From contig NC_135763.1 of the NCBI RefSeq assembly GCF_052425735.1, forward strand, positions 37,882,001 through 37,946,000: a stretch of DNA of 64,000 nt, written 5' to 3'. Made by a program: the position numbers and the translations under genes. Numbering within the stretch: position 1 is the stretch's first letter; every line of letters begins with the position of its first letter. Below are positions 1-21,083 of this stretch, piece by piece. Source of the DNA: Oculina patagonica (lineage: Eukaryota). Under the pieces are notes generated by a model. It worked only from the letters and a program-made list of their open reading frames with translations, did no database searches and was not told the origin of the DNA.

Positions 1-700
1 TTGGAATCAATAGTTACCCCTAAAAGCTTAAGAGTATCTGCGGTCTTAATTTTCTGATTGTTAGTATAGATCACTGCACTAGTGCCTGAGTCAGTTGTCT
101 TGCTGCAGCCGATGTTTAACGTCTGATATTTCTTTAGGTTTCCGGCCAGCAAGTTTGACTCGTACCACTTTGTTGCCTGATCCGCACTTTCACTAAGCTT
201 AGATGTAACCTCCACTAGATCATGACCACTGTGGTAAATTTGATGATCGTCAGCATACATAGATGGTCTGGTTGCTAAGCACAAGGGGAGGTCGTTCTGA
301 AAAATGTTCCATAGTAACGGCCCCAGGGCAGAGCCCTGGGGACAGCCTCTATTCACCAACCTGTACGAACTGACTTGGTTGCCCATTTTGACACGATTGT
401 ATCTGTCACTAAGGTAGCTTTTCAGGAGTTGTATAAGTCCGTCCTGGAAACCGTATGCTTTAAGCTTACTCAACAACAATGGTGGGTGTAGGGAGTCAAA
501 TGCCTTTGACATGTCAGTGGAAAGAATGTTCACGACAAGACTCTCGTCCCTTGCCCTCTTCCATGCCTCGACCAGGGTGATCAAGGTAGTTTCACAGCTG
601 TGATGTTTACGATATGCAGTTGAGTTTTCATACATACAGGAGTCAAAACCTGCGGCTATCTGATGACACACCAGTTTTTCCAGAACTTTGTTTACACATG
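1..700 (-). mobile_element. LINE (CR1/L2-like) reverse transcriptase ORF2, 3' part, split by the Maverick
   Basis: Minus-strand frame reads CVNKVLEKLV...STDMSKAFDSL...GCPQGSALGPLLWNIFQND...MYADDHQIY...KLLGVTIDS, which are the RT motifs. It runs off the left window edge. Confidence 0.9.
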
Positions 701-1800
701 AGTAGTAAGGACCGCTCTCCTGGCGGTCGACCAATCACAGAGCAGCATTTCTGCGCATGCGTAAAAGGGAAAACCACGTGACTTAGGAGGGTGATGACGT
801 CATAGGAGTCGGTCCCAGTCCCCAAACGGTGGGAATGAACTCGGTCCCAGTCCCCGCGCGGAAAAAAACGACAAGGCAAGAAAATAGGTGTAAAAGGGCA
901 AACCACGTGACTCAGGGGTGTGTTGACGTCATAGGAGTCGGTCCCAGGACGCTTGAGACTCGGTCCCAGTCCCCGGAGGGTGGGAATGAACTCGGTCCCA
1001 GTCCCCGCGCGGAAAAAAACGACAAGGCAAGAAAATACCAATCACAGAGCAGCAGTGGTGCGCTTGCCTTTAGAGAGAAAATCACGTGACAGAAGGGTGA
1101 TGACGTCATGAGAGTAGGTCCCAGGACGCTGGAGACTCGGTCCCAGACCCCAACGGTCATAAACTCGGTCCCAGGCCGTCCTCAGCCACAGTGTCGTCCC
1201 AGACCTTTTTCAAGACATGTCGCCTCCTACGTCATCGGTCCCAGACCCACCCGACCACGCCCTAACTCGCTCCCAGTCCACCTCGGTCACACTCTCGTTC
1301 GTCCCCAGACCCCTGCAAGACAACACACGCAGTTTCTAGTTTCACATTTTAATAACTGGATTAAAAAAAACCTGTTGTTTACAAACGAGACGTGTGCGAA
1401 GCCCTAGTGGCCGCGCACCCTGGGAATGAACGTGTACAAACTTAGCAAGACCACCATCCTATAGATATGGTTCACAAAGTGCCATACTGTCCTTGTGGTA
1501 TTTGGAACTCAATACTTTGCACTAAACGCACGTGCAGATGAGTCTACGCGATACACTCACGATTGATAATTAGTTACCTCTCTTGCGAAGACCACAAAGG
1601 TTGTCTCAGAAAGCGCCATGCCTTCCTTATGGTATGGTTCTTCCTGGCACTAAACGCATGCGCAGATGAGTCTGCATTGCTTTTTCTAGGTCGGCGATTC
1701 TGAGAAAACGCACGCTTGTGAAGTATTAAAAAAAAAGAAACACGTCAGAGAGGGGGGATGAGGGGGTATCCCCCTTTCTCGGGTGTACTGGGAACGAGTA
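701..1800 (+). repeat. Left terminal inverted repeat of the Maverick
   Basis: Reverse complement of 19942-21042. About 5 substitutions and a 1-bp homopolymer indel seen by eye. Confidence 0.97.
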
Positions 1801-1946
1801 CGAATCGAGCGGTGAGAGTGTTTATATCTCAAAAGATGTCGACAAGTAAGTTATTAAATATTCAGTTATGGAGAACGATCAACGTGGGTATGATTGAAAC
1901 TATATCAACGTGTTGCGGTAGGTTTCCTATCTGGGGCATGGTGGTA

Positions 1947-4900
1947 TTACGTACTGAAGTAACCATAGGGGTATGACATAAACGTGTTGGCATCTACCAC
2001 TCTCTTGTCGAAAACCACTTGATAGCGCTTGATCTCCGTCACAGTGTTCAGGGTTTTGGTGGTTTTGTCTCGAGTGATCTTGTGAGGGTTAAACACGGCA
2101 ATGCTCCTCGTTTCGGCCAAGGGTTCTTTCACTTCGGATTTGACGTTGTCTTTCAATGTCTCAAAGTTGAGATGGGCGGATCCTCTCACGTTCAAGGAAA
2201 AACCCCTTACTTTACAACAGGTTTTTCCCAGCTTCGTCTTGTAGGCATAGTTTTTTGGTCCCGCGGCAGCAAATTCCACAATGAAGTCATCATCGTCTAG
2301 TTCGTTCGTGAAGTCTCCCAGGTAATCACCCAATGGCAAGGAGGGCTGGCCTTCTCGAAGTTTGTAGATGAGGGAATCTGTGTCAAAATACAAGATCTGT
2401 TCGGGTTGTAGGATGGAAAGACCTTCTTGGTACAGCTTCAAACGGGCCCAGGTGGTCGTGAAACAGGCAACAAATATGTTGATATCCGGTTGAACGTTGG
2501 CGCAGTCCTCCTTGCACTTATGGACCACCTCCAACATGTCTGGATTGACGACCCGTATGTCGTGGATGTCTCGAGAATCGTCTCTTAACAAGTCGTGAAA
2601 CTCAGCTGCAGAGGTAAAGGCTTCGACTTGGGTCTTGTTGCCTCTCTGGCCATACTTGCCCCAAAAACTATTGAGCATGATCTTGGCCAGGGATCTGCGT
2701 CCGGGGTTCTTTTCAATTTTGTCCGGATCCAACTGGAGGCCTTCTTTGAGAAAGAACTGTCTCAGGTATTCCTGGCGCTTGTCTGGATCGTCGCCCACCC
2801 AGGAGGGCCAACCGCTCGCTTCCTGCTTCATCTTCAGGAAGGTGTTGACATACTCTTTAAACATGGTGTTGGATTTGCGGTCAAAGTGCCACACCTCGTG
2901 AATGTGCTCCACCACGTACCCTTGCTTGACGGCCTCTTCCAACTCGGGCGTGCACCACGTTCCGGTCAGTTGGCGTTCTTGGGGGCTGTGAGCGCATTTG
3001 GAGGATCGTTGGGTCAATGGCTTGGGCTGCTCCACTTCCACGCAGGTACGGCAGAGGGGGAATGTCAGTTTACCCCCTTGGCGATAGGGCAACACGGGGC
3101 TGTACAACCCGTAAGGTGGCGTCACCGTACACTTTGCCAGACCGAAGAATTGTGAAATGTTCGTGTGTCCCGGTTCTAGGATCACTTCGGGATGCCCTTG
3201 AGGGTAGTCACAGTTTTTGTTGACCCAGGGGTAGAGAGAAGTAAAGTCCACGTACCGGATCTCCTCTTCAGGTTCAGCAAGGTCATAGAGGCGGACGGCA
3301 TTGGTTCTACCGCCAAAGAACGCGTCTCGGGGCTCCAAGCGGGAGTTGATCGCCAACGAGTCCACGAACGATTTCACCTCGGGATCACTGTCCTTGAGCG
3401 CTTTCCACTGGCATTCCCACATTTCTACCACGCGGTAACCCGCATCCCGGATCCGTTGCGTCTTTTGTTGCGTTTCCGCGTACACGTCCCTCAGACTTCT
3501 GTCGCCCATCTTCCGGTGCTTCTGATCGCGATTGGGAAAACAGTCAGGACAGCCGTGAAAGTAACAGCCGTGGAACTCGTAAACCGTGCGATCCTCGTAC
3601 CCGTCGACGTTGATCAGACGGCCTCCAATCCACAAGGCTCGTTCTCCACCGTTCCTGGCGTGGCGGATGGTACCCTGCGTCTGGCTGTCTTGATACAGCA
3701 ACCATTCCAGCGAGACGTGCGAGTGAGGTTTGCCCTTGCCTTCCCAGCCTCGTACCGGTTCAGAAGCCAACGTCTGTTCTTGCATGCACTTGGTGCGGTA
3801 GAAGCGATTACAGGCGGAGGCAATGGTGAGGCACTTGTCCATGGGATCGAACCCGGCAATGGCTTGAAACTCTGCCCGGAAGACCTTGCACCCTTCGTGC
3901 AACAGCTCCACGTCGGAGCGACAGTAGTCGACAAGTTCGTTCCGAAAGTGGAACTCGTAATTCTCCGCCACGCGTTCTTCGTACCACTTGTCGAATTCGG
4001 CTTTCCTGGCAGCGGACATTCCCTCTGGATCGTAATAGTCTCTGGCAGGCATGCTTCCCACATAGTTTTGATTTTCCTTCGTGTTAAAGAAGTGGGGGAA
4101 AAACCCCTTTTTTTGCTCGGTGAGGCCAAAGGCTTTGGGAAAGGTAGCAAGGCTCATCTGCAGAAAACACATGGAGTCCTTAAAGGTGATGTTTGGGATG
4201 TTCATGCTGATTATTTTGGCACCATTGACGACTTGTTCAGGGCAGATGGCTTGGTCGTACAACTCGTTTAATATGAAATACGAGTCGTACCCTTGGAAGT
4301 TATGAGCGACAGCTATCACGCGGTGTTGTTCGGCGATCTCCCTCAACCAAGCGAGAAAGTCTTTGACACAAGTCTCTCCCTCGAAGGTTCTCCTCTCGTC
4401 GGTGTCTCCTCTCAGGGCGCAAATCAAGTTGGCGACGTGCTGGCCTTCTTCCTGCCTGGCTTCGGCGTCCCAACTGACGAACACGGGTGGTTGGTCTTCT
4501 TTGCGTTGACCGGCGCTGGTTCTCTTGCGGTTCTGTTTTTGTTCCACCTTGAGAGGATTTTGTATGTAGCACTGGTGGTAACGAAGATCTTGGTATTCCT
4601 TGCAGGACGGGCAGGAAGCGTGGCCGCACTTGTGACTGTTTCTCAGTTCATAGTCACCGTACGTCTTGAAACAGCCCGCACACCGTTTGTGCTTGTCACA
4701 CACACTGTTCCTCTTGTCTCGGGCCATGTCTTTGCCGGTGTCGGTGCGACTCTTGTGCAATTGAAGACAGCGGGTTCCAAAAAAGTCCCGTTGACAGTCT
4801 GTACAGTTCACCCTGGGTACAGCGTGGGCTCTCTTCCATTCGTGGCAATCTGTCTGATGGCAGGCGGCGCATCTGGCACCCGGGCAGCGGTGCTCCTTAG

Positions 4901-5816
4901 GATTGTTATGGGAGAACCCTTTTTCGCATTGGGTGCAATAATAACTCTTGCCAAAAAATCCGCCTAGGGAAGTGCAGCCGTGGTAATGGTCATGGTGCTT
5001 GATCAAGATCAAACGTTTGTCGTCGGGGCGTTGTGCTCCTTTGAAGATGATCTGGTACCCATGTTGGACAGACACCACCACAATCTGGTAGTCGTTCAAG
5101 TGCGCTTGAAATTTGGCCAATTCGTCCAAGCCGCAAGGACCTTCTGGCACGTCGGACAAACGATGCAACTCTCTGGCTGCCTTTTCTTGGATGGGGTATG
5201 CTCCACGGACATTCTTGTAATACCAATGGTCGTGGCCGTAATCGACGCGAGCCTTCATCATCACCAAGGCGCGGGCACAACATAACTGGTCGGTGTTTTT
5301 GATTTTCAGCACACATTTTTTGCGGTCCAGGATCTCCTCAATGGGATCCAAACCGGGTTTGTATTTCTGATGGTCTCCCCCTCTGCCTGGATCTTGTATG
5401 TGAGACACGTTTAGGTTGAACGTGTCGTCGACTTGAAAAGTCTGATTACTGTTCAGCATGTCACTGATTTGTTTTAACAACTGTTGGGCAGCGACGGTGT
5501 TTTCTCTCCACTCTCCCACTCTCAGCCGTCTGGAATGAAAAGCATTTTGAATCCTGTTACTGTTGATGTTGATCAACAAGTGATCGTCATCTCCAACGGC
5601 TCCATCATCCAAGATATGTTGCTGCACGGCTCTCTGCAGGGCTCTGGCAATCTGCTGCACCAATATGGGTCGCGGTCCTAGGGGAGCGGATTCCACTGCG
5701 GCACCACCACCACCTGTCTGCACCAATCGTCCGGTAAAGTTTCTGATGTGGAGACCAAATCTCCTGACTCGCCGATCTACATGGGCTCTCAGTTGAAATT
5801 CAAAAGGAACATCCAT
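1947..5816 (-). CDS. Protein-primed family B DNA polymerase (pPolB), main exon
   Basis: 1289 aa with exonuclease motifs (WDAE, AHNFQGYD, YCRSD), polymerase motifs (DFTSLYP, KIMLNSFWGKY, YFDTDS, KNY), an inserted VDG...EFHGCYFHG nuclease-like segment and an N-terminal Cys-rich region. Confidence 0.97.
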   Translation of the reverse strand: MDVPFEFQLRAHVDRRVRRFGLHIRNFTGRLVQTGGGGAAVESAPLGPRPILVQQIARALQRAVQQHILDDGAVGDDDHLLININSNRIQNAFHSRRLRVGEWRENTVAAQQLLKQISDMLNSNQTFQVDDTFNLNVSHIQDPGRGGDHQKYKPGLDPIEEILDRKKCVLKIKNTDQLCCARALVMMKARVDYGHDHWYYKNVRGAYPIQEKAARELHRLSDVPEGPCGLDELAKFQAHLNDYQIVVVSVQHGYQIIFKGAQRPDDKRLILIKHHDHYHGCTSLGGFFGKSYYCTQCEKGFSHNNPKEHRCPGARCAACHQTDCHEWKRAHAVPRVNCTDCQRDFFGTRCLQLHKSRTDTGKDMARDKRNSVCDKHKRCAGCFKTYGDYELRNSHKCGHASCPSCKEYQDLRYHQCYIQNPLKVEQKQNRKRTSAGQRKEDQPPVFVSWDAEARQEEGQHVANLICALRGDTDERRTFEGETCVKDFLAWLREIAEQHRVIAVAHNFQGYDSYFILNELYDQAICPEQVVNGAKIISMNIPNITFKDSMCFLQMSLATFPKAFGLTEQKKGFFPHFFNTKENQNYVGSMPARDYYDPEGMSAARKAEFDKWYEERVAENYEFHFRNELVDYCRSDVELLHEGCKVFRAEFQAIAGFDPMDKCLTIASACNRFYRTKCMQEQTLASEPVRGWEGKGKPHSHVSLEWLLYQDSQTQGTIRHARNGGERALWIGGRLINVDGYEDRTVYEFHGCYFHGCPDCFPNRDQKHRKMGDRSLRDVYAETQQKTQRIRDAGYRVVEMWECQWKALKDSDPEVKSFVDSLAINSRLEPRDAFFGGRTNAVRLYDLAEPEEEIRYVDFTSLYPWVNKNCDYPQGHPEVILEPGHTNISQFFGLAKCTVTPPYGLYSPVLPYRQGGKLTFPLCRTCVEVEQPKPLTQRSSKCAHSPQERQLTGTWCTPELEEAVKQGYVVEHIHEVWHFDRKSNTMFKEYVNTFLKMKQEASGWPSWVGDDPDKRQEYLRQFFLKEGLQLDPDKIEKNPGRRSLAKIMLNSFWGKYGQRGNKTQVEAFTSAAEFHDLLRDDSRDIHDIRVVNPDMLEVVHKCKEDCANVQPDINIFVACFTTTWARLKLYQEGLSILQPEQILYFDTDSLIYKLREGQPSLPLGDYLGDFTNELDDDDFIVEFAAAGPKNYAYKTKLGKTCCKVRGFSLNVRGSAHLNFETLKDNVKSEVKEPLAETRSIAVFNPHKITRDKTTKTLNTVTEIKRYQVVFDKRVVDANTFMSYPYGYFST

Positions 5817-5951
5817 CTTGAAACAAAGGAAACAAGGTAATGAATGTCCGTAATTTTCTGTTTTACTGTACAGCTCATTAGAATATTACACAGCATATTA
5901 GCATACGAAAAACGGGTTACACGAATTCACTCTACTCTAATAACTAGTTAC

Positions 5952-6211
5952 CTCTTCCTCGGAGTCTTCTTGACTTTGAATACCGCGCTGTTCACCACTT
6001 GTGCTTGCACCCTGCGATGGCCAAAACATGGTATTAATAAAAAAACGCACGTGAATTGAACACGACCAAACGCATCTCATCAACGTACCTCTTCCAATCT
6101 AGCCCTCTTGGGACTTTCTTCGACCATCTCAGGTTCCATAATTTCTCCTTCAACCTCTTCTTCTATCTTACCAGAGTCTTCTTTTTCTCCACCAGTCTTC
6201 TCTTTTTCCAT
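5952..6211 (-). CDS. Predicted upstream coding exons of polB (6211-6089 and 6011-5952)
   Basis: Canonical GT/AG sites, exon lengths 123 and 60 nt, both introns phase 0, joining in frame to the ATG at 5816. Confidence 0.7.
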
Positions 6212-6273
6212 ATCTTGATGAGTGCTTAGACCAAACAAAGTTTGCGAGTGACAAAAGTCAAGCGGAGCTCTCG

Positions 6274-6558
6274 TTATATAGAGAGAATTAACCAATCAGC
6301 TTTTACTTTTTATTATAACCAATTAAATACTCGGTCCATTCTTTTTCGAGGTGACGTGTACAGAATCAACCAATGAGATCTCATGATCAATGTCGCCCAC
6401 GTGACGGGATTTTCCCCACAAGGGTAAAATCCCAAGCTCACGGGATTTTCCCACAAGGGTAAAATCCCGGGATTTTCCCCCAAGGGAAAAATCCCGACGC
6501 ACGCGCGTGGAGAATCTTTCTCGGAATTCTCGGAACCCGCGTGTGTTCATTCTCGGAA
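6274..6558 (-). promoter_or_regulatory. Putative polB promoter/enhancer (TATA, CCAAT, kB-like and GAS-like sites)
   Basis: TATATAA on the minus strand at 6280-6274. CCAAT at 6292, 6319, 6370. GGGATTTTCC x3 with inverted partners at 6406-6495. TTCTCGGAA x3 at 6518, 6527, 6550. Confidence 0.6.
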
Positions 6559-7062
6559 AAGTACAGTAAAAACGGACGAAGTTTTCTTGTCGGATTACAG
6601 CTCTTTTCAAGAAGGATATAAGCTTTAAGGTGAGCTAATGTCTCCATACTCTACTGTACAAGACGAAGAGCGTTTGATAAATTGTATTTACTGCGAAAAA
6701 TAAATTTGGTTACGTTGTAAATCTTGACGAGTGGTTTGTTTTTGTTCGTGCGGCCATCATGAACCCTGCATAGTAAAGAAGAAGAAGGTTTTAGACCCGT
6801 TCATTTCGTTCAAGGTTTTTTGGTCTAGTTTTGTTTATGGTCAAAAAAAGAAGAAACCAAACTTTACGAATGAACAAGTCGTTTTTGGTGGACTGAATTA
6901 TTCTTTTAAGCGAAATTGCTCGCGCAGTTGTCGTTGTCTTTCATAAACAACAACGCCTTCATCTTTTCTTTTTGCGGTCTCAAAATCGAGGGAACATCCC
7001 ACTATGATTCAGAAAAAAATAAAACCTAGCCACCTAGAAATGAAGCTTAAACGTTGTAAATC

Positions 7063-7985
7063 CTAAACAAGTGTGTCACCGCCTCCGTTGTGATTTTTCA
7101 CCGGTCGCGAAAAATATAATTTTAGCGAGCGGTTCATTTGACCGTTGTTCAAATGCATTGTTTCTCGAGGAAAAAAATTTTGTTTCGGCCCTTAAATCAA
7201 AGAGATGTCCAACCATGAATGGTATTAATTTAGTAAAACGCAAAGCAAGCCATTGAGCCGACTCTTTTACATTTTTAGACTCTAAACAAGTGTGTCAACG
7301 ACTTTGTTGTGATTTTTACCGTTCGCGAAAAAATATAATTTTAGCGTGAGGTTCGTTTGGCCGTTGTTCAAATGCATTTTTCTCGAAGAAAATTTTTTTT
7401 TTGCGGCCCTTATATCAAAGGGACGTCTAACCATGAATGATATTATTTCGATGAATGTTATTGAGCCGAAAATTTCATATTTTTGGACTCTAAGCACAAG
7501 TGTCATCGACTTTGTTGTGATTTTCACCGTTCGCGAAAAAATATAATTTAGCGTACGGTATTTGTTGTTGTTTAAATGCGTTTGTTTGTTTGTTTGTTTT
7601 TGCGGCCCTGAAATGAAAGGGACGTCCAACCATGAATGATATTATTTTAGTGAATCTCAAAGCAAGTCATTGAGCCGGATCTTCACATTTTTACACCCTA
7701 AACAAGTGTGTCAACGAGTTTGTTGTGATTTTTCACCGGCCGCTAAAAATATAATTGTTGTAGGTGGTTCATTCGGCCGTTGTTAAAATGTTTTTTTTTT
7801 TTTGCGGCCCTTAAATCAAAAAGGACGTCCAACCATAAAAGATATTATTTCGATGAATGTTATTGAGCCGAAAATTTCATATTTTTGGACTCTAAGCACA
7901 AGTGTCATCGACTTTGTTGTGATTTTCACCGTTCGCGAAAAAATATAATTTAGCGTGCGGTATTTGTTGTTGTTGTTAAAGCGAT
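7063..7985. repeat. Non-coding tandem array, ~4.5 units of ~195-220 bp, inside the Maverick
   Basis: Units start at 7063, 7282, 7490, 7698 and 7892 (CTAAACAAGTGTGTCA or CTAAGCACAAGTGTCA). 7440-7570 and 7842-7972 are nearly identical. Confidence 0.9.
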
Positions 7986-8035
7986 TGAATACCATACTCT
8001 CGTAATTCAGTTTCGGCATGGAGCAATTTTTAAAT

Positions 8036-8557
8036 TTATTTAACAACAAAAGTGTGATACCATAACCAGAAAGCATGACATTCGGTCATTGGACAATGTC
8101 CTTCGTATAGATGAAAACCGCAACTAGGTAAAGGTTCTACAATTGTCTCTTTCAACACGTCGTATTTCGGACATCCGTACAGTTCTAAATTCACGCTAGG
8201 AATGTTCAGTTTGTTCAACAAGTCTCTTTCGACGTGTCCTCCCTTGTAAGCCACCACGGTTCTCTCGGGGGTTTTGGTCTCCTCGTACAAATCCCACATC
8301 ACCTCCTCCACCCTGTCATACTCGTAGGCCTTTTCTTCCTTTCTGGGTTGATACGTCAGTCCGTGCACGTTGTATTTGACGTAAGACACGGTTTTTCTGT
8401 CTCTGGAAGATAAGTTGCACCACGGCATTCTCATGTAGAAAGCATGGCGTCCGAACTTTTCTTGCCAAGTGTAATAACCCAACTCGCGTACTCGAAACGT
8501 CTTCTCCACAAAGTAACCTTCCAAGTCCAAGATCATGCACACATTTTCCGGAGTCAT
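8036..8557 (-). CDS. DEDD/DnaQ-like nuclease-fold protein (possibly Maelstrom-like)
   Basis: ILDLEG motif I, VAYKG, C-terminal CxxH...HC...C cluster, and AATAAA at the stop. Confidence 0.6.
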   Translation of the reverse strand: MTPENVCMILDLEGYFVEKTFRVRELGYYTWQEKFGRHAFYMRMPWCNLSSRDRKTVSYVKYNVHGLTYQPRKEEKAYEYDRVEEVMWDLYEETKTPERTVVAYKGGHVERDLLNKLNIPSVNLELYGCPKYDVLKETIVEPLPSCGFHLYEGHCPMTECHAFWLWYHTFVVK

Positions 8558-8622
8558 GCCAGAGCCAACTGCACTCTGATGCTTGACGTAGAAAATATAT
8601 GAAAATGTTTAAACTGTAAATC

Positions 8623-9531
8623 TCAATGATCCAAATTACGATATTGTTTCTGGGAAATGCGCTTCAGATACAGTTGATTTCTCAGCATTTTCTCTTCATC
8701 CGAGTCGTACTTCACGCCAGCCAATTCCGGGGGAAGAATAATTTTCCCTTCTCCATCCACCCAAAACTTTTGCTCTTGACACTGTTTGACCAATGACTCG
8801 TCCAAGGGAAGATCACCAATCCAATCCTTGACCGGGGGTGGGTAGTGTTGTACTTTGAAGGCGGGTCTCCCATCCAGAATTCGTTGCGGTCTATCCACCA
8901 CGTCTTGTCCTCTACTGGGGTATCCAAATTCGTTCCTTGAGTCCAGTCCAGACCTTCTCGAGTAGAGGGGATCCTCGTTTCCCACATATTCCTTTCCTTC
9001 CAGCCAGGCTTTGATCTTGCCAAACGGAACACTGTCGGCCCATTGGAAGAACCGGCATTTACCCTTTCTGCACTTGAGGTAGATCCTGTCCGGGTTGCTC
9101 TCTGATTTCGACATGCTCAGAATGAGACTCTCGTTGCAGTAACATTTCATCTTATCCATGTTCCAATAATAGTAAGCCGGTAATTGTTGATTGACCGCCA
9201 CCACGTACTGGTCAATGTGGGCGCTACCGGTGCAAATGAAACAGATGGTGCCTTCGCTCGTGTGGGGGCAAAAGTAGAACTCCCATCCCCCGTCCGTCAT
9301 TCTCTTGGTCAGCGGTTCTTTGTGGACGGGGCAAACCGGGTCGCGCTCCGTGTCGTCAAAGGTCTGTTGTAGGAACTGGTCGGGGTCGAAAATTTCACCC
9401 TCCTCCAACACTTCCTCTTTCAACTCCATCTTCTTCTTTGTAGGATGTCTCTTTTTACGGGGGACTTTGGGTTTCTTGGGGTTTCCAGTCCCTCTCCTCT
9501 GTCGCTTTTTTCGGGGTTCTACCAAGTCCAT
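8623..9531 (-). CDS. GRF-type zinc finger protein with basic NLS
   Basis: CYC-x13-NPDRIYLKC...CRFFQWAD fits zf-GRF. A second degenerate CxxH...C...C module lies upstream. N-terminus is K/R-rich. Confidence 0.75.
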   Translation of the reverse strand: MDLVEPRKKRQRRGTGNPKKPKVPRKKRHPTKKKMELKEEVLEEGEIFDPDQFLQQTFDDTERDPVCPVHKEPLTKRMTDGGWEFYFCPHTSEGTICFICTGSAHIDQYVVAVNQQLPAYYYWNMDKMKCYCNESLILSMSKSESNPDRIYLKCRKGKCRFFQWADSVPFGKIKAWLEGKEYVGNEDPLYSRRSGLDSRNEFGYPSRGQDVVDRPQRILDGRPAFKVQHYPPPVKDWIGDLPLDESLVKQCQEQKFWVDGEGKIILPPELAGVKYDSDEEKMLRNQLYLKRISQKQYRNLDH

Positions 9532-9559
9532 GGTGCGTCGACTGAGGTCTAGTAGAGGC

Positions 9560-9700
9560 CGGCGCTAGGCTTTTATACTCTACCCTCGGAATGACGTCAA
9601 TACGCACGAACCAACCAGAGAGGTAACACGTGACCTCTTCCGACCAACCGGCAATGACCCAGGTGACGTCATCCAACGTATAAAAAGAGCTGCGCGTCCA
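9560..9700. promoter_or_regulatory. Symmetric bidirectional viral promoter
   Basis: TATAAAA on the minus strand (~9570-9576) and plus strand (~9680). TGACGTCA at ~9592 and ~9664. Central CACGTGAC. It lies between divergent ATGs at 9531 and 9722. Confidence 0.65.
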
Positions 9701-9721
9701 TTTGTCGACTCAGTTGCAGCG

Positions 9722-9997
9722 ATGGAAAGCACAGACAGCGATTCCAGCCAAACTCAAACTCAAACCCAACAAGTCAACGGTGTCTTTGTACAAGGAGATC
9801 CCAAGGACTGGGAACCATTGCCTTACTATAGGGATCTAAAAAGGGACGATTTTCAGTCGGACGAAAATTACCTATTGGCGCGCGCGAAACGTGGCATGGA
9901 AGCAGGCTACACGTTAATGCAGTGTCAAGAGCATTGGATGTGCGATCTCGAGAGGGCATTACACAAAGGTTTGGCCGAAGCAAGCCAAGAGCAGTAA
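9722..9997 (+). CDS. Hypothetical Maverick protein (91 aa)
   Basis: ATG ~40 nt downstream of a TATA box; abuts the next ORF. Confidence 0.6.
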   Translation: MESTDSDSSQTQTQTQQVNGVFVQGDPKDWEPLPYYRDLKRDDFQSDENYLLARAKRGMEAGYTLMQCQEHWMCDLERALHKGLAEASQEQ

Positions 9998-9998
9998 C

Positions 9999-10769
9999 AT
10001 GGGTACGAGAGAAAACTGGATGGACCTGGAACAACGCCTCTTCTACACCAATTGTACAAAGCTAGAAAAAAAGATCCAGACCGACACGGGAATGAGTACG
10101 TTGTCGTTAGACTATCCCACCACCATACCCGAAAACATTCCAAGGAGAGTCTATGTCTTCGAGGACATGGTGAAAGAGCGCGGGTGTGCCAAAAACCGCG
10201 TCACCGAAAGTGAATGGCTCAAAGAGAACCCTCACTGGAAGGGAGCCGTCCTAACGACTCTCAAAGACATTGGGCACGGTTATCTCTGGGATAGACATTG
10301 GAATGAATTTGTCTACGTGCCATTACAGCGAGCCTTTTTCTTCGCGACGTCTCGCAACCCGCCGCCCATTGGCAACGGCGTCTCGTTCTGGTTGAACGCG
10401 AACGTCGGCGACTTTGACGAACGGAGTGGTTTAGACGATCTCATCGCCCCGTTGAGAGCGAGTGTAGCCCTAAGCCAGACATTGTCTGCTTTCTTGAAAC
10501 AACCCATCACGGTCGACGCAAACACGTACGAAGAACTGTGCAACCAACTGGCAACTCAAGTAAAATTGCAACGCCTAGAAAGCAATCGCTGGCAAGAAAT
10601 AGCGGATAGACTGTTAGACAGAGATCTCTGCAACCGTTGCGCCATGGATAAAGACGAAGCTTACCTGGGCGACGACTACCAAAAAGCCAAACTGTGGAGA
10701 CCTAGAAGTTGTGAAACATGTACAAAATCTTTTGATAACATATTTATTGATGCAGGCTATTTAAATTGA
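9999..10769 (+). CDS. Hypothetical Maverick protein (256 aa, C-terminal CxxC...CxxC)
   Basis: Long ORF with CNRC and CETC pairs, followed by AATAAA at ~10779. Confidence 0.7.
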   Translation: MGTRENWMDLEQRLFYTNCTKLEKKIQTDTGMSTLSLDYPTTIPENIPRRVYVFEDMVKERGCAKNRVTESEWLKENPHWKGAVLTTLKDIGHGYLWDRHWNEFVYVPLQRAFFFATSRNPPPIGNGVSFWLNANVGDFDERSGLDDLIAPLRASVALSQTLSAFLKQPITVDANTYEELCNQLATQVKLQRLESNRWQEIADRLLDRDLCNRCAMDKDEAYLGDDYQKAKLWRPRSCETCTKSFDNIFIDAGYLN

Positions 10770-10796
10770 CGTTGTATAAATAAAAGTTCATTTGTC

Positions 10797-11108
10797 ATGG
10801 ATCTGTATGGAAAGTGGGAGTGGTTGAAAAGATTGTGCGAGAAAGCGTATGCTGAATTTGGGAGGGGTATAGATATACCGGAAGATACAAGTGACTCCCC
10901 CTTGAGAGTGTTCGAAGCCACTCACATAGAAATAAACTATTTCAGATTGATACCGTTTATATTATGGTTGAGACATTTCAAGGATCCAGCCGAGCTGTTT
11001 GCTTCTATTTACAAACTTCATCCGACCACGATCGAAGCAGCAGCTCATAAATTACACGGCACTTATATGAGGGTGATCAGAGCGTCGTCGACATGCCAAA
11101 GAAGCTGA
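10797..11108 (+). CDS. Hypothetical Maverick protein (103 aa)
   Basis: Fills the gap before the integrase and overlaps its start. Confidence 0.5.
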   Translation: MDLYGKWEWLKRLCEKAYAEFGRGIDIPEDTSDSPLRVFEATHIEINYFRLIPFILWLRHFKDPAELFASIYKLHPTTIEAAAHKLHGTYMRVIRASSTCQRS

Positions 11109-12172
11109 AAAAGGATGAAAAAATACTTTCGGACTACCACGATCCCAGTCAACCGGGTAGCTTGGGTGGGATAGCAAGATTCGCCAAATCGCACAAGATA
11201 TCCGTCGACACAGCCAAAAAAGTATTGGAGCGCGATTTGGGTTATACCCTTCACAAACCGCGCAGACGTCGTTTCGCCACGTTACCGGTCCTGGTGTTTA
11301 ACGTCGACCAGCAGTGGGTAGCCGATTTAGTGGAAACGCAACCGTTGTCCAAATACAACAAGGGTCACAGATATCTACTCAACGTGATCGACGTCTTGTC
11401 TAAATATGCCTGGGTGGAACCCCTAAAAGACAAGACGGGAAAAACGGTGTCGGACGCCTTTGCCAAGATTTTGAAACGAGCCGATGGACGCAAACCTCAG
11501 AACCTACAGACCGACGACGGGAAAGAATTTTACAACAAGACGTTTGCCGCGTTGATGAAACGAGAAGGCATCCACCACTTTTCCACGGCCGGAGAAACCA
11601 AAGCCAGCATCGTGGAACGCTTCAACCGCACTCTCAAGGAACGCATGTACAGATACTTTACCGCCAAGAACACGCTCAGTTACCTACCTGTACTCCAGGC
11701 CTTGGTGAGAGGTTACAACGGATCCCACCATCGTAGCATCGGCACCAGCCCCGAGACAGTGAATGCGAGCAACGAAGGAAAAGTGTGGGAACGCCTGTAC
11801 GCGAAGAGATTGTCGTCGGGTAAAAGAGAACGAAAAACCCCGCTAAAAGTAGGAGAACGCGTGAGATTGAACAAGAAATTTCGCACGTTCGAGAAAGGGT
11901 ATTTACCCGGCTGGACCGAAGAAGTGTTTGTGATACGAGAGGTGCGTCGGGGACCACCCGTCACGACTTACAAGATCCAAGAGTTGGACGACACCCCCCT
12001 TCGCGGTACGTTTTACAAGGAAGATCTACAAAAAGTCGCAGTGTCCGACGACGATGTCTTCAGGGTAAACAAGATCGTCAAACGAAAAGGAAATAAAGTC
12101 TTGGTGCACTGGAAAGGCTGGCCAGACAAGTACGACAGCTGGATCGAGAAGACGGCTCTAAAAAAATCATGA
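11093..12172 (+). CDS. Retroviral-like (rve) integrase with C-terminal chromodomain-like region
   Basis: WVADL...QTDDGKEF...VERFNRTLK DDE triad; C-terminal VLVHWKGWPDKYDSWI. Confidence 0.96.
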   Translation: MPKKLKKDEKILSDYHDPSQPGSLGGIARFAKSHKISVDTAKKVLERDLGYTLHKPRRRRFATLPVLVFNVDQQWVADLVETQPLSKYNKGHRYLLNVIDVLSKYAWVEPLKDKTGKTVSDAFAKILKRADGRKPQNLQTDDGKEFYNKTFAALMKREGIHHFSTAGETKASIVERFNRTLKERMYRYFTAKNTLSYLPVLQALVRGYNGSHHRSIGTSPETVNASNEGKVWERLYAKRLSSGKRERKTPLKVGERVRLNKKFRTFEKGYLPGWTEEVFVIREVRRGPPVTTYKIQELDDTPLRGTFYKEDLQKVAVSDDDVFRVNKIVKRKGNKVLVHWKGWPDKYDSWIEKTALKKS

Positions 12173-13200
12173 GCCACGAGGAAGGATTTTACGTCACGTT
12201 ACCCAGTCACAGCAGCGGAACCGAGTTTCCAGAGAATAGAGCAAACTCTTTCAAGGTGCGATTACCTCACCCGCTACGATTAGAAGGAACCGGTTGGAAA
12301 GTGGGATTGAGTAGCATTTCCGTGCCAGATGCCAGCATCGACTTAACTCGCTTTAAGTCGTTCAAGTTTCCTCTCTTGAGTGCTCAGTGGATGCTCAAGC
12401 GCAAAGACAACGAGGGTCGCGTGCAAAGCAAGTCGGTGACCACCGATCTGACGTTCCAGGACATTCTATATGACGACAACATCGTGGATGGCCTCAGTTT
12501 CATGAAAGCCCTGGTCTTCAAGTTCGATCAAGTCAAAGAATACAAGCGTATCGTGGGAGACTTGACCAAGTCGCCCGATAATGGAAAGCAGTGGGAATAT
12601 ACGTTCAAGTGGGAAGGTGAAGAACTAGTCCTCGACAACTCGAACTTGGACGTCTCGGAAGTGAAAACTGAAGGCGTCCCATATTACATGTCTTTCAACG
12701 AGGATTTGGCCTTTGACATGGGATGGGTAAAAAAGGACGAGAAAGAAAACGTGTTTCTCGGGCCGAACCTGAAGCCGGAATGCCACCACGCTACGATACC
12801 CGATCCTATAGACGTGGATGATTTTGGAGAGGGCAAGAAAAATTTCTGGGTTGTTGAGAATGGACAGCTTTTCTTGAGTTGCTATTGCAACTGGCGCTTT
12901 GTGAAACTCAACAGAGCCTTCCAAAAAGTGATTGGAGATGCATCGCGTACGCTTTTCGTTTACTCAGATGTGGGTGGTAGTTCCGTTGTGGGAAATCAAG
13001 TCACGGATCTGTTGCGGGAAATTCACTTTCAACGTGAAGGAAAAGGGATCAAGTACTTTGAACCTCTCCACATACAATATATTCCACTCCGCAACCAGAT
13101 CGTGGACATTATTGAAACGCAAGTGAGCGAGACTACAGGTAAACTGGTGGATTTTGGCGAAGGCAACACGATCGTGACCTTACATATCAAGCGAACATGA
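12169..13200 (+). CDS. Minor capsid protein/penton (PX)
   Basis: FYVTLPS...FPENRANSFKVRLP...WKVGL N-terminus and LFVYSD...LLREI...YIPL...VTLHIK C-terminus, typical of Polinton penton. Confidence 0.85.
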   Translation: MSHEEGFYVTLPSHSSGTEFPENRANSFKVRLPHPLRLEGTGWKVGLSSISVPDASIDLTRFKSFKFPLLSAQWMLKRKDNEGRVQSKSVTTDLTFQDILYDDNIVDGLSFMKALVFKFDQVKEYKRIVGDLTKSPDNGKQWEYTFKWEGEELVLDNSNLDVSEVKTEGVPYYMSFNEDLAFDMGWVKKDEKENVFLGPNLKPECHHATIPDPIDVDDFGEGKKNFWVVENGQLFLSCYCNWRFVKLNRAFQKVIGDASRTLFVYSDVGGSSVVGNQVTDLLREIHFQREGKGIKYFEPLHIQYIPLRNQIVDIIETQVSETTGKLVDFGEGNTIVTLHIKRT

Positions 13201-13454
13201 GAGGCGGTGCCCTGACGCGTTTCACACCGGATCCTCCACCTCAAGAGGGGAACGGATTTTTGGCCGACATCGTGAGAGAGTCTCTGGGTGGAGCCGTGAG
13301 AGGATTTAAGAGTGGGCGCGGCGTCGCGGACCGCATTCGTAAAGCGGGTCAAGGAGCCAAGAGTGGTCCTAAACGAGTCGTGAAACGCAAACTGAAAAAC
13401 GTCATAGAACGAAAAGTCAAGAGAAAACTGAACGACATCTTTGCCGAAAAATGA
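13197..13454 (+). CDS. Small basic core-like protein
   Basis: K/R-rich with MRGG and QEGNG putative adenain sites; ATGA overlaps at both ends. Confidence 0.65.
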   Translation: MRGGALTRFTPDPPPQEGNGFLADIVRESLGGAVRGFKSGRGVADRIRKAGQGAKSGPKRVVKRKLKNVIERKVKRKLNDIFAEK

Positions 13455-13687
13455 ATCCCGTTTACTCGCGATCGTCTAGATTGGTCCGATCCAAACGCGC
13501 CCCCGTCAGACAGCGGGGAGAAGGATTCTCACTGGCACTTTTGAACCAGGCCTTGTTGGGACAAAAGAGCCGACGACGAAAAGTACAAAAGGGCGGGTGG
13601 ATAGGTCCCGAGGTCAGAAAGCCTCCTGGCTACGACTGGATACAGACCTTACGGAAGCGCAGTGGAAGAAGGAAGAGAAGACGATGA
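13451..13687 (+). CDS. Small basic core-like protein
   Basis: R-rich with QRGEG and QKGG motifs; ATGA overlaps at both ends. Confidence 0.65.
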   Translation: MNPVYSRSSRLVRSKRAPVRQRGEGFSLALLNQALLGQKSRRRKVQKGGWIGPEVRKPPGYDWIQTLRKRSGRRKRRR

Positions 13688-15087
13688 CCGAAACCATCTC
13701 GAGTGCCTACCCGCAGTCGAGACGCGAGGCCAATCCTCGATTGGATCTATTCGCCGTACCACCGACAGACGTCAGCGTCTCGTCGTATCGGATGGTCCCC
13801 GTTCAGACCTACACCACAGGCATCAATCCGGTGGAGTTTCAGATCGACCCCCAAGAAGATTACATCGATCTCAGCCGTAGCTTTTTCGAGGTAGAATTGC
13901 AACTGAAGAAAGACAACGATGAGAACGTGGCAGCTGCCGACAAGCTGTGGCCCGTCAACAATCTAGCCCATTCTCTGTTCAAGCAAATCAGCGTGCGTCT
14001 CAACGGTACTCTCATCAGTCCCCAGACGGACACGTACCATTACAGAGCCTTCTTGGAAACGTTGCTGAATTACGACAGACGTGATGGAGAAACCATTTTG
14101 AAACCTCAAGGATGGTACAATCATATCGATTTCCCAGCCACGTGGACGGACAATAACACGAACACTGCAGCCAACGCTGGAGCTGGACACGCAGACTATG
14201 TAGCCCTGACCGCCAATCACAAGGAGGCTCTCAAGAACTCTAAAGCAGAACAAGCCAATTACACGGAAGGCAAGCGACACGTGTTGCGTTTCAAGCCCCT
14301 CATCGAAGTGTTTCATCTGAGCAAGTTGTTGGTACCCAGAGTGCAAATAGGAATACAGATGTACTTCAATTCTCCCGACGTGTTCTTGAACGGAGTGGGT
14401 CTTGCAGGAAAGTTGACGGCCGAGGAAGTCAAAGTTCGATTGTACCTGTGTCAAGTGCGTCTCAATCCCACGACGTACAGGAGACTGATGGATGAGATGA
14501 CCACCAAGAGTCAAGTGGTGAGTTACCCGACCGTGAGAAGCGAGATTCGGACCTTCAACATGCAGGGAGATCAACGACGGTACGAATGCACCAACTTGTT
14601 CCAAGGAAGAATTCCCAACCGCGTGATCGTGGGTATGGTACTGTCCACAGCCTTCACCGGGAACGTGGTCAACGATCCCTTCTGTTTTCAGAAGTTTGGA
14701 ATGAGCAGCATAAAACAACTCGTGGGAGGAGAAGAGTATCCTTACGAGACGCTAGAGTTGGTCCACAACGATGGCACCAAAGATCTCAGAGGGTACCACC
14801 GTTTCTTGCAAGCCACCGGATGCCTGTGCAAGCAGCAAGGAAACATGGTGAGAGGTGACGATTGGGGACAAGGAAAGAATTGCACGTTATTCGTGTTCGA
14901 CAACGTGGCCAATGGATGCGTGGACAGTTACAGGATGAACCCCAAGCAAGCCGGAAATCTACTAATAGAGCTGAACTTTGGAGCCAACCCAGCTGTGAAC
15001 TTGACCATCATCGTGTACGGAGAGTTTGAGAATCTCTTGGAGATTGACAAGAACAAAGCCGTGTTGTACGACGTGTACCAGCGTTAG
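13684..15087 (+). CDS. Major capsid protein (PY, double jelly-roll)
   Basis: LDLF..PPT, YIDLSRS, NNLAHSLFKQI, YHYRAFLETLLNY and IPNRVIVGMV motifs of Polinton MCP. The ATG at 13684 is preferred over the 13597 start given in the ORF track. Confidence 0.92.
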   Translation: MTETISSAYPQSRREANPRLDLFAVPPTDVSVSSYRMVPVQTYTTGINPVEFQIDPQEDYIDLSRSFFEVELQLKKDNDENVAAADKLWPVNNLAHSLFKQISVRLNGTLISPQTDTYHYRAFLETLLNYDRRDGETILKPQGWYNHIDFPATWTDNNTNTAANAGAGHADYVALTANHKEALKNSKAEQANYTEGKRHVLRFKPLIEVFHLSKLLVPRVQIGIQMYFNSPDVFLNGVGLAGKLTAEEVKVRLYLCQVRLNPTTYRRLMDEMTTKSQVVSYPTVRSEIRTFNMQGDQRRYECTNLFQGRIPNRVIVGMVLSTAFTGNVVNDPFCFQKFGMSSIKQLVGGEEYPYETLELVHNDGTKDLRGYHRFLQATGCLCKQQGNMVRGDDWGQGKNCTLFVFDNVANGCVDSYRMNPKQAGNLLIELNFGANPAVNLTIIVYGEFENLLEIDKNKAVLYDVYQR

Positions 15088-15089
15088 TG

Positions 15090-15659
15090 ATGGAGAAAGT
15101 GACTTTGAATAACGTGCAATTGGATCAGTTGGCCAGACATCACCCTTGGTTGAAACCTTATTTTTACGGGACAGTGGCCTGCGATCGATTACCTCGCAAA
15201 CCATTCAAGACGGAAGCCCGCGGGTACATCGTCAACACCGATCCTCACTACATGCGCGGTCGGCATTGGATCGCGCTGTGGACGAATGGAAACGTGTGCG
15301 AAGTATTGGACAGTTACGCCTTACCCCTAGAAGTGTACCAGACGGCGCAACCGTTGCAAGATTGGTTGGACGCTCATTGGAAGTACGTGGAGCGCAACGG
15401 ACAGAGTCTACAATCGTTGTACAGTCAGAGCTGCGGCGATTACGCGTTGATGTATCTCATCGATAGGGCCGAAGGACGTAGCATGAGTCAATTCGAAGCG
15501 AGATTCAAGAAACACGATTACGTGTACAATGATCATAAAGTTGGGCAAATGTTGAAGCAATTGATCTCGAAGGAAACGTCGTGGCACAAAATTTGTCAGA
15601 TGGAATACCATCAGGATTGTGAACCGTCTCTCTGCGGTGTAAGACACTTGTTGTTGTGA
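15090..15659 (+). CDS. Adenain-like cysteine maturation protease
   Basis: IVNTD...GRHWIAL (His), DSY (Asp), QSLYSQSCG (Gln/Cys). Confidence 0.93.
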   Translation: MEKVTLNNVQLDQLARHHPWLKPYFYGTVACDRLPRKPFKTEARGYIVNTDPHYMRGRHWIALWTNGNVCEVLDSYALPLEVYQTAQPLQDWLDAHWKYVERNGQSLQSLYSQSCGDYALMYLIDRAEGRSMSQFEARFKKHDYVYNDHKVGQMLKQLISKETSWHKICQMEYHQDCEPSLCGVRHLLL

Positions 15660-15791
15660 GATGACAAATAAAAACGTGGAAATAAATAAGGTGTGTGTCG
15701 TCTGTCGCTCGGGAGATCGGGATTCGTTGCAGACTTTTTTTCTGCAACATGCTTATATCATTGCTCGTTTTTTGACGAATGTCATTTCGCC

Positions 15792-16457
15792 ATGGAGCGC
15801 GGTGAAGCCTTTAGCTTTCGGATGCCCTCTAGCATTTTGATCGTGGGCCCCTCTAGCTGCGGAAAGACTTGTTTTACCGAGTCGGTACTTTTGAACCACT
15901 CAAAAGAGTTGTTTAGTACACCCCCTGAGACCATTCATTACTGTTTTGGGGCTTGGCAAGACGGTTTCGCGCACATGAAAAAGCGAGGCGTGAAATTTCA
16001 CGAAGGGATTCCCGAAGAAGTAGATTTGACCAAATGGTCTCCCCGTGGAGGGGTGATGGTATTGGACGATCTGATGGAAGAAGGAGGAAACGACAAGAGA
16101 GTATTGGATCTGTTCACCAAACTTTCCCACCACAGGAACATCACCGTCCTGTACTTGTGTCAAGACATGTTTCCGCCGGGAAAATACGCCAAGAGCATTT
16201 CTCGAAATGCGCATTACATCGTGGCTTTCAAGAACCCTCGCGATCAATTGGGCATGAGGAATTTACTGTTACAAGCGTTTCCCTCCCGATGGCAAGATGT
16301 GATGGACGTCTACACCAAGACGACGGAAAGACCCTTTGGTTACATGGTATTGGATCTACACCCTGCCAGTGGCGACGACAGACGGATTTTTAGCCACCTC
16401 TTAAAAGACGAGGGATGCATGAGATGTTACAGATTCGTTCGAGATGTTCGTACGTAA
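15792..16457 (+). CDS. A32/FtsK-like packaging ATPase
   Basis: Walker A GPSSCGKT, Walker B MVLDDLM, SHHRNITV..LCQ, ISRNAHY. First ATG at 15792. Confidence 0.94.
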   Translation: MERGEAFSFRMPSSILIVGPSSCGKTCFTESVLLNHSKELFSTPPETIHYCFGAWQDGFAHMKKRGVKFHEGIPEEVDLTKWSPRGGVMVLDDLMEEGGNDKRVLDLFTKLSHHRNITVLYLCQDMFPPGKYAKSISRNAHYIVAFKNPRDQLGMRNLLLQAFPSRWQDVMDVYTKTTERPFGYMVLDLHPASGDDRRIFSHLLKDEGCMRCYRFVRDVRT

Positions 16458-16683
16458 CGATCACGTGTGGCACGCGTTCTTGGACCTGTGCAGTCGTCAT
16501 TTCGAGCGTATGAGAGAAGAGGACATGGATTACGACGCCATGCAAACCGTGCTACATTTGGCCGAAAAGCGCCAGATGTGGAAATTCGTGAGAGAATATA
16601 ACGAGACTTACTTCAGCGAATTGATCCAGACATTAGAAGAGAGAGCTAGAAAGACATGTCAAGACATTCGCCAGCAGGAGTAG
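16444..16683 (+). CDS. Hypothetical Maverick protein (79 aa)
   Basis: Tiles between the ATPase and the next ORF. Confidence 0.5.
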   Translation: MFVRNDHVWHAFLDLCSRHFERMREEDMDYDAMQTVLHLAEKRQMWKFVREYNETYFSELIQTLEERARKTCQDIRQQE

Positions 16684-17057
16684 GAACCAGTCCTAGTGCC
16701 ATTCCAATCGTCGACGTCAACCGAGGGGGATTGGAACAGACATTGGATCGAATCGACCCCATAGTCCTTAGACGGTACTTGGATCAATTACCGTCTCCTG
16801 CAGTGGGTACGGGAACTTTGAGACCTTCTTCCTCGAGGTCCAACGTACCTGCTGGTCAAGGAACGCTAACGGGTGGTCCACACCAATTGAATCAAGACGA
16901 CATGCAACGTCAATTGCAAATGCTGTTCAACGATCAACGTCAAGTGGCGGCTGGACGTCGCATCGCAGGCATCACCACGACAAACACCATCACTACGACC
17001 TATAAAGACGGGGGACGACCGACCGTTCGTCGTACCTCGACGAGAGTGAGCCATTAA
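16656..17057 (+). CDS. Hypothetical Maverick protein (133 aa)
   Basis: Tiled ORF with a Thr/Arg-rich C-terminus. Confidence 0.55.
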   Translation: MSRHSPAGVGTSPSAIPIVDVNRGGLEQTLDRIDPIVLRRYLDQLPSPAVGTGTLRPSSSRSNVPAGQGTLTGGPHQLNQDDMQRQLQMLFNDQRQVAAGRRIAGITTTNTITTTYKDGGRPTVRRTSTRVSH

Positions 17058-17059
17058 AG

Positions 17060-17554
17060 ATGTCCCTACTAAACGGTTCGAAGACGAACTTGGATCCAGA
17101 CCTGTTACACAGATTGGACGGATTGTATACCTTTTACCACAAAAAGTGGTGGTGTCATCGTCAAATGTTTTACCATTTTAAGTGGTGTCATGCTTCATTG
17201 AATGCTTTGGCTTTGTTCATCGTGGCAGCGGGTGTCATTGCGGGTTCCCTTACAGAAAATAGTGTTATTGTGGCATGCCTAACTTCAGCTGGGACTGTCG
17301 TCAAGGGCTGGAACGATTTCAAGAAATATTCGTTCAAAGTGGACGTATGTCGTTTTGCCTACACCAGCTACGACAAGACGTTGATCGAATTGAGAACGTA
17401 CGCGCGCGGTCTTCCGATGGACGAACTAGAAGGATTCTTGATCAAGATGCAAACTCTAGATGACACGATCACCGATTTCACGCCGCCCGTGGCCGACAAG
17501 TACGTGCAAGCGTACGAACGACAACACGATAAATCCGAAGGTACCCCCGTCTGA
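17060..17554 (+). CDS. Predicted membrane protein with hydrophobic hairpin
   Basis: LNALALFIVAAGVIAGSL and SVIVACLTSAGTVV segments flanked by charged helices. Confidence 0.65.
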   Translation: MSLLNGSKTNLDPDLLHRLDGLYTFYHKKWWCHRQMFYHFKWCHASLNALALFIVAAGVIAGSLTENSVIVACLTSAGTVVKGWNDFKKYSFKVDVCRFAYTSYDKTLIELRTYARGLPMDELEGFLIKMQTLDDTITDFTPPVADKYVQAYERQHDKSEGTPV

Positions 17555-17572
17555 AGTGACAGTTATGGTAGG

Positions 17573-17794
17573 ATGGGAAGAACGAAACGTAAGGCCAGAA
17601 GAAAGAGGCAGCGAGGTGGGGCTCTCGCGAGACGTAAACATCGTTTGGTGGACAAGATAGCCGAGGGGGCCAGCATGTTTCTCTCGGGTCCTTCACCCAC
17701 ATTCTTCACGTTGGGTGGTAAATTGGCCAGTCAAGGATTTAAAGGGATAATGGATAATGTAAATCATTATAGACGTAGACCGCGACGACGATAG
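17573..17794 (+). CDS. Small basic core-like protein
   Basis: Poly-R N-terminus followed by QRGG and an amphipathic segment. Confidence 0.6.
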   Translation: MGRTKRKARRKRQRGGALARRKHRLVDKIAEGASMFLSGPSPTFFTLGGKLASQGFKGIMDNVNHYRRRPRRR

Positions 17795-17798
17795 GACC

Positions 17799-18005
17799 AT
17801 GAGGAGAAAGAAACGTGTGACGCAAAGGCGGAGACGTGCTGGCAGGAGAAGAATAGGACAGAAGGGTGGTATTTTACCCTTAGCAGCCTTGATACCAGCT
17901 TTGATCGCGGGTGGAAAAGCAATCGCTTTGGGTGCTGCATCGGGTGCTGCAGGTTGGGGTGCAAAGAAAGCCTTGGATGCAGCCACTCGAAAGAAAAAGA
18001 GATAA
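17799..18005 (+). CDS. Small basic protein with post-cleavage hydrophobic helix
   Basis: Poly-R followed by QKGG|ILPLAALIPALIAGG. Confidence 0.65.
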   Translation: MRRKKRVTQRRRRAGRRRIGQKGGILPLAALIPALIAGGKAIALGAASGAAGWGAKKALDAATRKKKR

Positions 18006-18073
18006 AAACACTATAAGAGGATGGGGGCATTGGGCGTCACCGGTAGTTACAACAGACTGCATTCTGTGACAAG

Positions 18074-19849: not shown

Positions 19850-19941
19850 TGTTGTTGAACACAATAAAGACGTGGTTAAACGTTTACATGTTGTCGTATG
19901 TGCATTCGATCACCGACTCGAGTAAACAAACAAAACTCTCT

Positions 19942-21042: not shown

Positions 21043-21083
21043 CACATGGAAGGATGGTAATTGGCCTGTAGTTCTCTTTAGAA
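21043..21083 (-). mobile_element. 5' stub of the interrupted LINE
   Basis: Encodes SKENYRPITILPC, which joins in frame to VNKVLEK at the left flank. Confidence 0.85.

Follow-up and report, generated by a model that had tools for sequence, protein, structure and literature searches.

The polymerase leader of an Oculina patagonica Maverick is spliced, and elements with closely related backbones and divergent polymerases part mostly inside its second intron

Intact vertebrate Mavericks/Polintons have no introns according to the available text of PMC8097293, through which the intronless statement of Kapitonov and Jurka (2006) is also given. A coral survey (PMC11131425), in which Prodigal was used for part of the data, contains the terms intron, splic and exon nowhere. 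No spliceosomal intron in a polinton polymerase is reported in the accessible portions of PMC11131425, PMC8502044, 10.1101/2023.08.22.554363, PMC11296320, PMC12220804, 10.1101/2024.03.25.586562 and 10.64898/2026.10.13.758929; Repbase entries and bioRxiv supplements may annotate exons. The literature, as far as these portions go, describes Mavericks as intronless or is silent on introns, and the leader described here is already present in two public gene models. The protein-primed polymerase (pPolB) of polintons has been described with a TP-vOTU-polymerase layout (Krupovic et al., 10.1101/2024.03.18.585575), the terminal protein (TP) being proposed as likely cut off by the vOTU domain and staying on the DNA ends. 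The words intron and splic do not occur in the accessible text of that work, nor does it describe an acidic tail and its exons. Different polymerase classes have been reported on related element bodies, and for this replicase mosaicism homing endonucleases or autonomous modules, not introns, are proposed in the available text of 10.64898/2026.10.13.758929 and 10.1101/2023.08.22.554363. In adenovirus E2B, shared 5' exons serve separate pTP and pol mRNAs (PMC11304566, available text).

The window analysed here is a stretch of 64,000 nt of O. patagonica DNA (contig NC_135763.1) that contains an intact Maverick/Polinton (Table 1). The element has the AGT-type ends of this group, long terminal inverted repeats and a 6-bp target duplication on both sides, and it encodes the expected pair of Maverick enzymes, a protein-primed polymerase B (PF03175, E 7e-47) and an rve integrase (E 3e-13) with a chromodomain. 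These features, together with an OTU-like domain at the N-terminus, ahead of pfam03175, are shared with Mavericks/Polintons and with the PolB of alpha-type adintoviruses (Starrett et al. 2021, PMC8502044, available text). The difference lies in the spliceosomal introns of the polymerase leader, where the available text of PMC8097293 gives none for intact vertebrate elements; intronless core genes are a descriptive trait of those elements rather than a definition, and the window Maverick departs from it. Pfam matches to a packaging ATPase (Pox_A32, E 0.077) and an adenovirus-like protease (Peptidase_C5, E 0.011) are weak, a Walker A motif is visible in the ORF at 15792-16457, and a Pfam search with the 467-aa and 343-aa candidates for the double and single jelly-roll capsid proteins gave no match. 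The closest named homologues come from stony corals. Accessory ORFs lie at 8036-9531, 17060-17554 and 19484-19849; those of the element include a possible DEDD-type exonuclease (by eye), a GRF zinc finger (PF06839), a weak SLATT match and a parvovirus-like phospholipase A2 domain (PF08398, Pfam).

Table 1. Features of the Maverick/Polinton and its polymerase gene, in window positions.
Feature	Position	Strand	Remarks
Maverick/Polinton element, intact	701..21042	.	20.3 kb; AGTAGT ends (at 701 and 21042), target duplication CACATG
Left terminal inverted repeat	692..1736	.	Partner 20007-21051; 1045 nt, 99%
TATA-like box	6274..6280	-	Candidate promoter element, followed by a conserved motif at 6250
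Leader exon 1, coding part	6089..6211	-	ATG 6211; 123 nt, 41 codons, acidic, ends S-P-K-R-A-R-L-E-E
Intron 1	6012..6088	-	77 nt, GT..CAG, phase 0
Leader exon 2	5952..6011	-	60 nt, 20 codons, open, Ser/Thr/Gly/Glu-rich
Intron 2	5817..5951	-	135 nt, GT..pyrimidine tract..AAG, phase 0
Remnant of host MITE end in intron 2	5845..5933	-	89 of 135 nt; full MITE in L009 and at window 59654-60335
Terminal exon, pPolB ORF	1947..5816	-	ATG 5816; 1289 aa, PF03175
Predicted terminal-protein domain, residues 1-140	5397..5816	-	Invariant L-N-S-N at 121-124, candidate linking Ser
Predicted vOTU protease domain	4947..5339	-	Invariant C179, H277; after disordered G-R-G-G linker 144-147
Internal basic cluster core, candidate NLS	4518..4529	-	Residues 430-433 of pPolB
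rve integrase with chromodomain	11093..12172	+	Backbone part, 95-97% to copies with other polymerases

The initial annotation had read pPolB as the last exon of a three-exon gene. Its coordinates, both intron sizes, the phase 0 of both introns and the PKRARLEE end of exon 1 are all exact on the minus strand, and the proposed product of 1350 aa agrees with the codon sum (41 + 20 + 1289). Acidic residues make up 22 of the 61 residues of the leader, and the K-R-A-R motif is embedded among them. Reading on from exon 1 into intron 1 meets a stop after 2 codons, the first ORF with intron 1 retained stopping after 43 codons, and an in-frame ATG occurs at 6029. Because the ORF's own ATG sits in good context right at acceptor 2 (5816), a 1289-aa product is also possible. 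A three-exon model with all exons in phase 0 was found once in the real sequence and in 0 of 1000 sequences obtained by dinucleotide shuffling of the 474-nt region, under a simple donor/acceptor rule that was set after the sites had been seen and with acceptor 2 held fixed. The TATA box noted about 65 nt upstream is present, beginning 69 nt before the ATG, but it fits less well as a mark of the transcription start, since contigs of three probable RNA runs (X8, X5 and X2) extend upstream through the box in a sister copy, L013. A short tandem motif array is located upstream of the box at 6400-6500, and AT-rich repeats of about 200 bp are located at 7054-7974, between pPolB and the next genes.

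Contigs of sequencing runs from related organisms, guessed to be RNA and unstranded, were aligned to the leaders. One contig of run X8 (334 nt, depth 4.77, 105 letters on the short side) skips exactly the 135 nt of intron 2 with a GT-AG joint (CT..AC on the plus strand), and this is the junction, 5952^5816, that had been put forward as a check of the model. Among the four runs compared with the window, the joint was absent in X1, X2 and the DNA-like X14 (270 contigs). The X8 junction contig spans exon 2, reaches 45 nt into intron 1, ends where a copy type without donor 1 diverges from the window, and probably derives from that copy type. No joint of intron 1 was found in the seven different runs aligned, in which cover there was low; in X8, depth over 6074-6207 came from a contig that could not be placed. 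On L013, four contigs from three of four runs and three studies leave the reference at the acceptor (1225-1226), belonging to X8 (depths 87.9 and 10.9), X5 (6.99) and X2 (14.9), and none of the X10 contigs does so. No break of genomic DNA was seen at this acceptor in the parsed copies of the polymerase class of L013, all of which keep the acceptor tract. Unspliced contigs are also present on L013 (X2 record 9, X5 record 22). Inside intron 2 of L013 (1225-1607) and L014-L018, the acceptor and the first codons of the polymerase occur a second time in decayed form. Intron 2 matches a U2-type intron in its GT-AG ends, its pyrimidine tract and its removal in one probable-RNA contig, and intron 1 does so in sequence signals and frame conservation.

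Genome searches yielded 59 DNA and 45 protein matches, and the leader region was parsed by motif in 28 copies. Conservation in related copies, as the initial annotation had asked for, was found: among copies with the donor, 15 of 17 have an open, in-frame exon 1 (81-165 nt), exon 2 is open and in frame in 20 of 21 (36-78 nt), and acceptor 2 is in phase 0 in 27 of 28. Five copies lack donor 1. Intron lengths vary freely, at 72-83 nt for intron 1 and 135-1352 nt for intron 2. When distinct length classes were counted, with five type-C copies left out, multiples of 3 accounted for 17 of 20 exon classes vs 4 of 16 intron classes (Fisher p 4e-4), a comparison that overstates independence, as the copies are related and many of the exon length differences are 3n-unit repeats. 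Seven copies (L012, L029, L055, L064, L065, L066 and L070) need an upstream exon because a stop closes the frame at the acceptor and at least 53 codons follow without a Met, with none preceding the conserved N-terminal motif. Two copies (L014 and L028) have a frameshifted leader and yet an open polymerase of about 1310 aa. The public eukaryotic gene models P0001 and P0004, whose source may be this genome or one very near to it, start with the leaders that were parsed for L018 and L009, respectively. Copies L003-L006 and L030 all lack donor 1 and have a polymerase frame that breaks early; they form a non-autonomous subfamily that has spread nonetheless and is probably still transcribed and spliced. 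In the type-C leaders (L055, L064, L065, L070 and L029), the first exon is rich in lysine and arginine and repetitive, and out of frame from the first ATG.

Taken together, the polymerase leader of this Maverick is spliced, with removal of intron 2 seen in RNA-like data and that of intron 1 likely. For the window copy itself, the comparison with other copies suggests that intron 1 would be removed as well. The leader model is carried at intron 2 by a contig and at intron 1 by comparison, and frame conservation, the Met-less copies and the gene models lead us to infer that an acidic leader is translated.

The statement that pPolB "gains" an acidic leader is misleading. The N-terminus is indeed acidic and carries an NLS-like motif, but the extension is the norm in the family and is usually encoded in the same ORF. 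Among other homologues that align from the N-terminus, 46 of 49 have at least 15 extra residues, 42 of them acidic. A metagenome search with an alignment query gave 80 loci, and of the 54 that match from query residue 5-6 and were examined, 42 have a Met at least 15 codons upstream in the same ORF, five have no Met and seven a short start. Related loci were found neither in viral contigs nor, with a single query, in metagenomes. Unspliced acidic leaders also occur in the same genome (L061-L063, L073), and three metagenome loci of one lineage have a single phase-0 intron of their own in an acidic leader. By eye, L069 (G000:C5) has phase-1 micro-exons and L075 a single acidic exon, both leaders being apparently separately spliced. 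The acidic tail is an old trait of the family, in which charge rather than sequence appears to be kept, and splicing is one way to supply it.

The tail precedes a domain that is predicted to be the terminal protein. The predicted structure of residues 1-290 (mean pLDDT 84.5) contains an alpha/beta domain joined by a disordered G-R-G-G linker to an OTU-like domain; S123, C179 and H277 are invariant in 41 aligned sequences. A Foldseek search of PDB gave OTU domains as its top three matches (E 1.2e-3 to 4.2e-3; OTU matches overall E 1e-3 to 1e-2), but nothing reached E 0.001 and the TP domain drew no match, and adintovirus proteins were on top in a BFVD fold search. As modelled, residues 1-290 fit the TP-vOTU scheme in the available text of 10.1101/2024.03.18.585575, sharing its predicted beta-beta-alpha-beta-alpha-beta N-terminal domain, the invariant Ser after the second long helix and an OTU-like domain with invariant Cys and His. 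An insertion at residues 737-815 (~3608-3370) is a candidate for a VSR-type nuclease, resembling that of marine pPolB2 in the available text of 10.1101/2023.08.22.554363.

We hypothesize that the host spliceosome likely joins the two short in-frame exons to the terminal exon and thereby would extend the predicted terminal-protein domain by an acidic tail of 61 residues, as the counterpart of the acidic extension of 20-90 residues that is part of a single ORF in most relatives. Should the vOTU domain cleave behind the TP domain, as has been proposed for polintons, the leader would remain attached to the cleaved TP on the genome ends. There it could serve as a flexible charge or phosphorylation handle: S-P-x-R, which we take to be a CDK-type site, occurs in 10 of 15 in-frame leaders. 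K-R-A-R would be an optional import signal, the conserved basic cluster in the polymerase body being the likelier main NLS, and intron 2 would be a neutral region where a MITE has inserted, many deletions have accumulated and recombination between co-resident elements takes place. We consider this explanation likely as a whole.

A competing reading is that intron 2 alone is normally removed and that the upstream exons are a spliced 5' UTR with an upstream ORF, translation starting at 6029 or 5816 so that polymerase output is throttled. It draws on the only RNA-like contig across intron 1, which retains at least 45 nt of it, on the two ATGs at these positions, and on the type-C leaders, whose exon 1 is out of frame from the first ATG in 4 of 4 copies having that ATG and whose different, 48-nt exon 2 has an ATG of its own in five copies. 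We nevertheless regard this as distinctly improbable: exon 1 keeps its frame to the donor over nine length classes, a TAG at acceptor 1, directly before exon 2, closes the retained reading in eight copies (L013-L018, L054 and L071), and loss of donor 1 accompanies broken polymerases in 5 of 5 copies (at 178-189 aa). Chance or host-imposed cryptic splicing of inactive copies, with the polymerase being an ordinary single-exon ORF, would agree with the reported intronless state of intact vertebrate Mavericks (PMC8097293, available text) and with the existence of unspliced contigs. The seven Met-less copies, the conserved frame, the shuffles and the exact GT-AG joint already largely refute it, and very little credence can be given to it.

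The alternatives also concern what a translated leader would do. The initial annotation emphasized its NLS-like motif, and K-R-A-R might be a required NLS, with nuclear import of pPolB, or of the terminal protein on genome ends, as the leader's job. The classical monopartite NLS consensus is K-(K/R)-x-(K/R). K-R-x-R is found in 8 of 15 in-frame leaders with two different exon-1 types, R-x-R is found in 15 of 15, and several phage terminal proteins carry NLSs (PMC4974454, available text). As a general feature of leaders the motif does not hold up, and we judge a required NLS unlikely. The lysine is missing in 7 of 15 leaders, four of which precede open polymerases of about 1300 aa, so that the classical consensus is not conserved across functional copies; K[KR]x[KR] occurs in 1 of 46 homologous N-terminal extensions; and in the window copy the motif is surrounded by acidic residues. 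The R-x-R beside the donor could be kept for splicing, and 10 of 10 aligned proteins, spliced or not, have a basic cluster in the polymerase body, near residue 430. The case for a leader NLS is weak, and such a signal is at best optional.

Under the preferred reading of a spliced acidic tail, intron 2 is also where elements would recombine. The polymerase tree (22 rows) and the leader types disagree: exon 1 of type B precedes polymerases of three clades at 97-99% DNA identity, and that of type C polymerases of two clades at 95-99%. Three copies have polymerases that are 45% and 67% identical to that of the window in full and, for the third, about 60% at the N-terminus, and match the window backbone at 97.1%, 96.6% and 95.5% over 8-9 kb, including integrase and capsid candidates. 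Similarity is lost inside intron 2 in five of six pairs with different polymerases and 67 nt into the terminal exon in one, and intron 2 is also the joining point in four of four pairs whose polymerases are alike and leaders unlike; these are 10 hand-picked pairs that are not independent, and junctions could build up in any non-coding stretch ahead of a gene. Backbones of 95-97% identity with divergent polymerases, and junctions mostly inside intron 2, are new here. Compared with the mosaicism in the available text of 10.64898/2026.10.13.758929 and 10.1101/2023.08.22.554363, these swaps are recent, with 95-97% backbone DNA identity that includes the integrase, and have their junctions in a spliceosomal intron. 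The homologue P0007 has its own Met a few codons before the place of the acceptor in Met-less copies, which suggests that self-starting polymerase genes may have been turned into terminal exons.

We tentatively propose, with somewhat more doubt than confidence, that the phase-0 leader works as a plug-in socket: the backbone would keep the promoter, the start codon and the acidic tail, and an incoming pPolB with a phase-0 acceptor would become the new terminal exon by recombination in intron 2. If true, exon shuffling would let co-resident Mavericks trade polymerases sharing as little as 45% identity, together with their terminal-protein domains, and the known mosaicism of polinton replicases would have a mechanism. 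As intron 2 coincides with the polymerase exchange points, this mechanism for replicase swapping is testable. Spliceosomal introns in the replicase imply that these elements are transcribed in the host nucleus by host machinery. Annotation of Maverick genes as single ORFs misses the true N-terminus of pPolB, the part that would become the genome-linked terminal protein, and for the seven Met-less copies an ORF caller would truncate the TP domain itself.

The resemblance to the spliced adenovirus pol/pTP leaders that had been suggested stands for the layout, a large terminal exon joined by host splicing to short 5' exons (PMC11304566, available text). It fails for the sharing of exons between separate genes: adenovirus shares three 5' exons between two genes, whereas TP and polymerase are one ORF here, and no second acceptor gene for the leader was found. 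The leader here also adds about 60 acidic residues and its introns are short; the likeness is one of layout, and homology is not claimed.

Two notions about the MITE in intron 2, which is complete in L009 and an 89-nt remnant in the window copy, were considered and rejected. It did not create the intron, as the donor position is the same in L010, L011, L012 and L054, which show no MITE match. Nor does it derive from the Maverick, as the genome holds at least 40 dispersed full-length matches, with 3-bp duplications in 11 of 11 host copies checked. Elsewhere in the window, reverse transcriptase fragments (PF00078) occur at 3-635, adjoined by the Maverick insertion, and at 46310-47473, and four tRNA-like 57-nt repeats at 30366-31589, in which ARAGORN found no tRNA, are possibly SINE heads. 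The full MITE in the window, presumably Harbinger-like, is 682 bp long with inverted ends and 3-bp target duplications.
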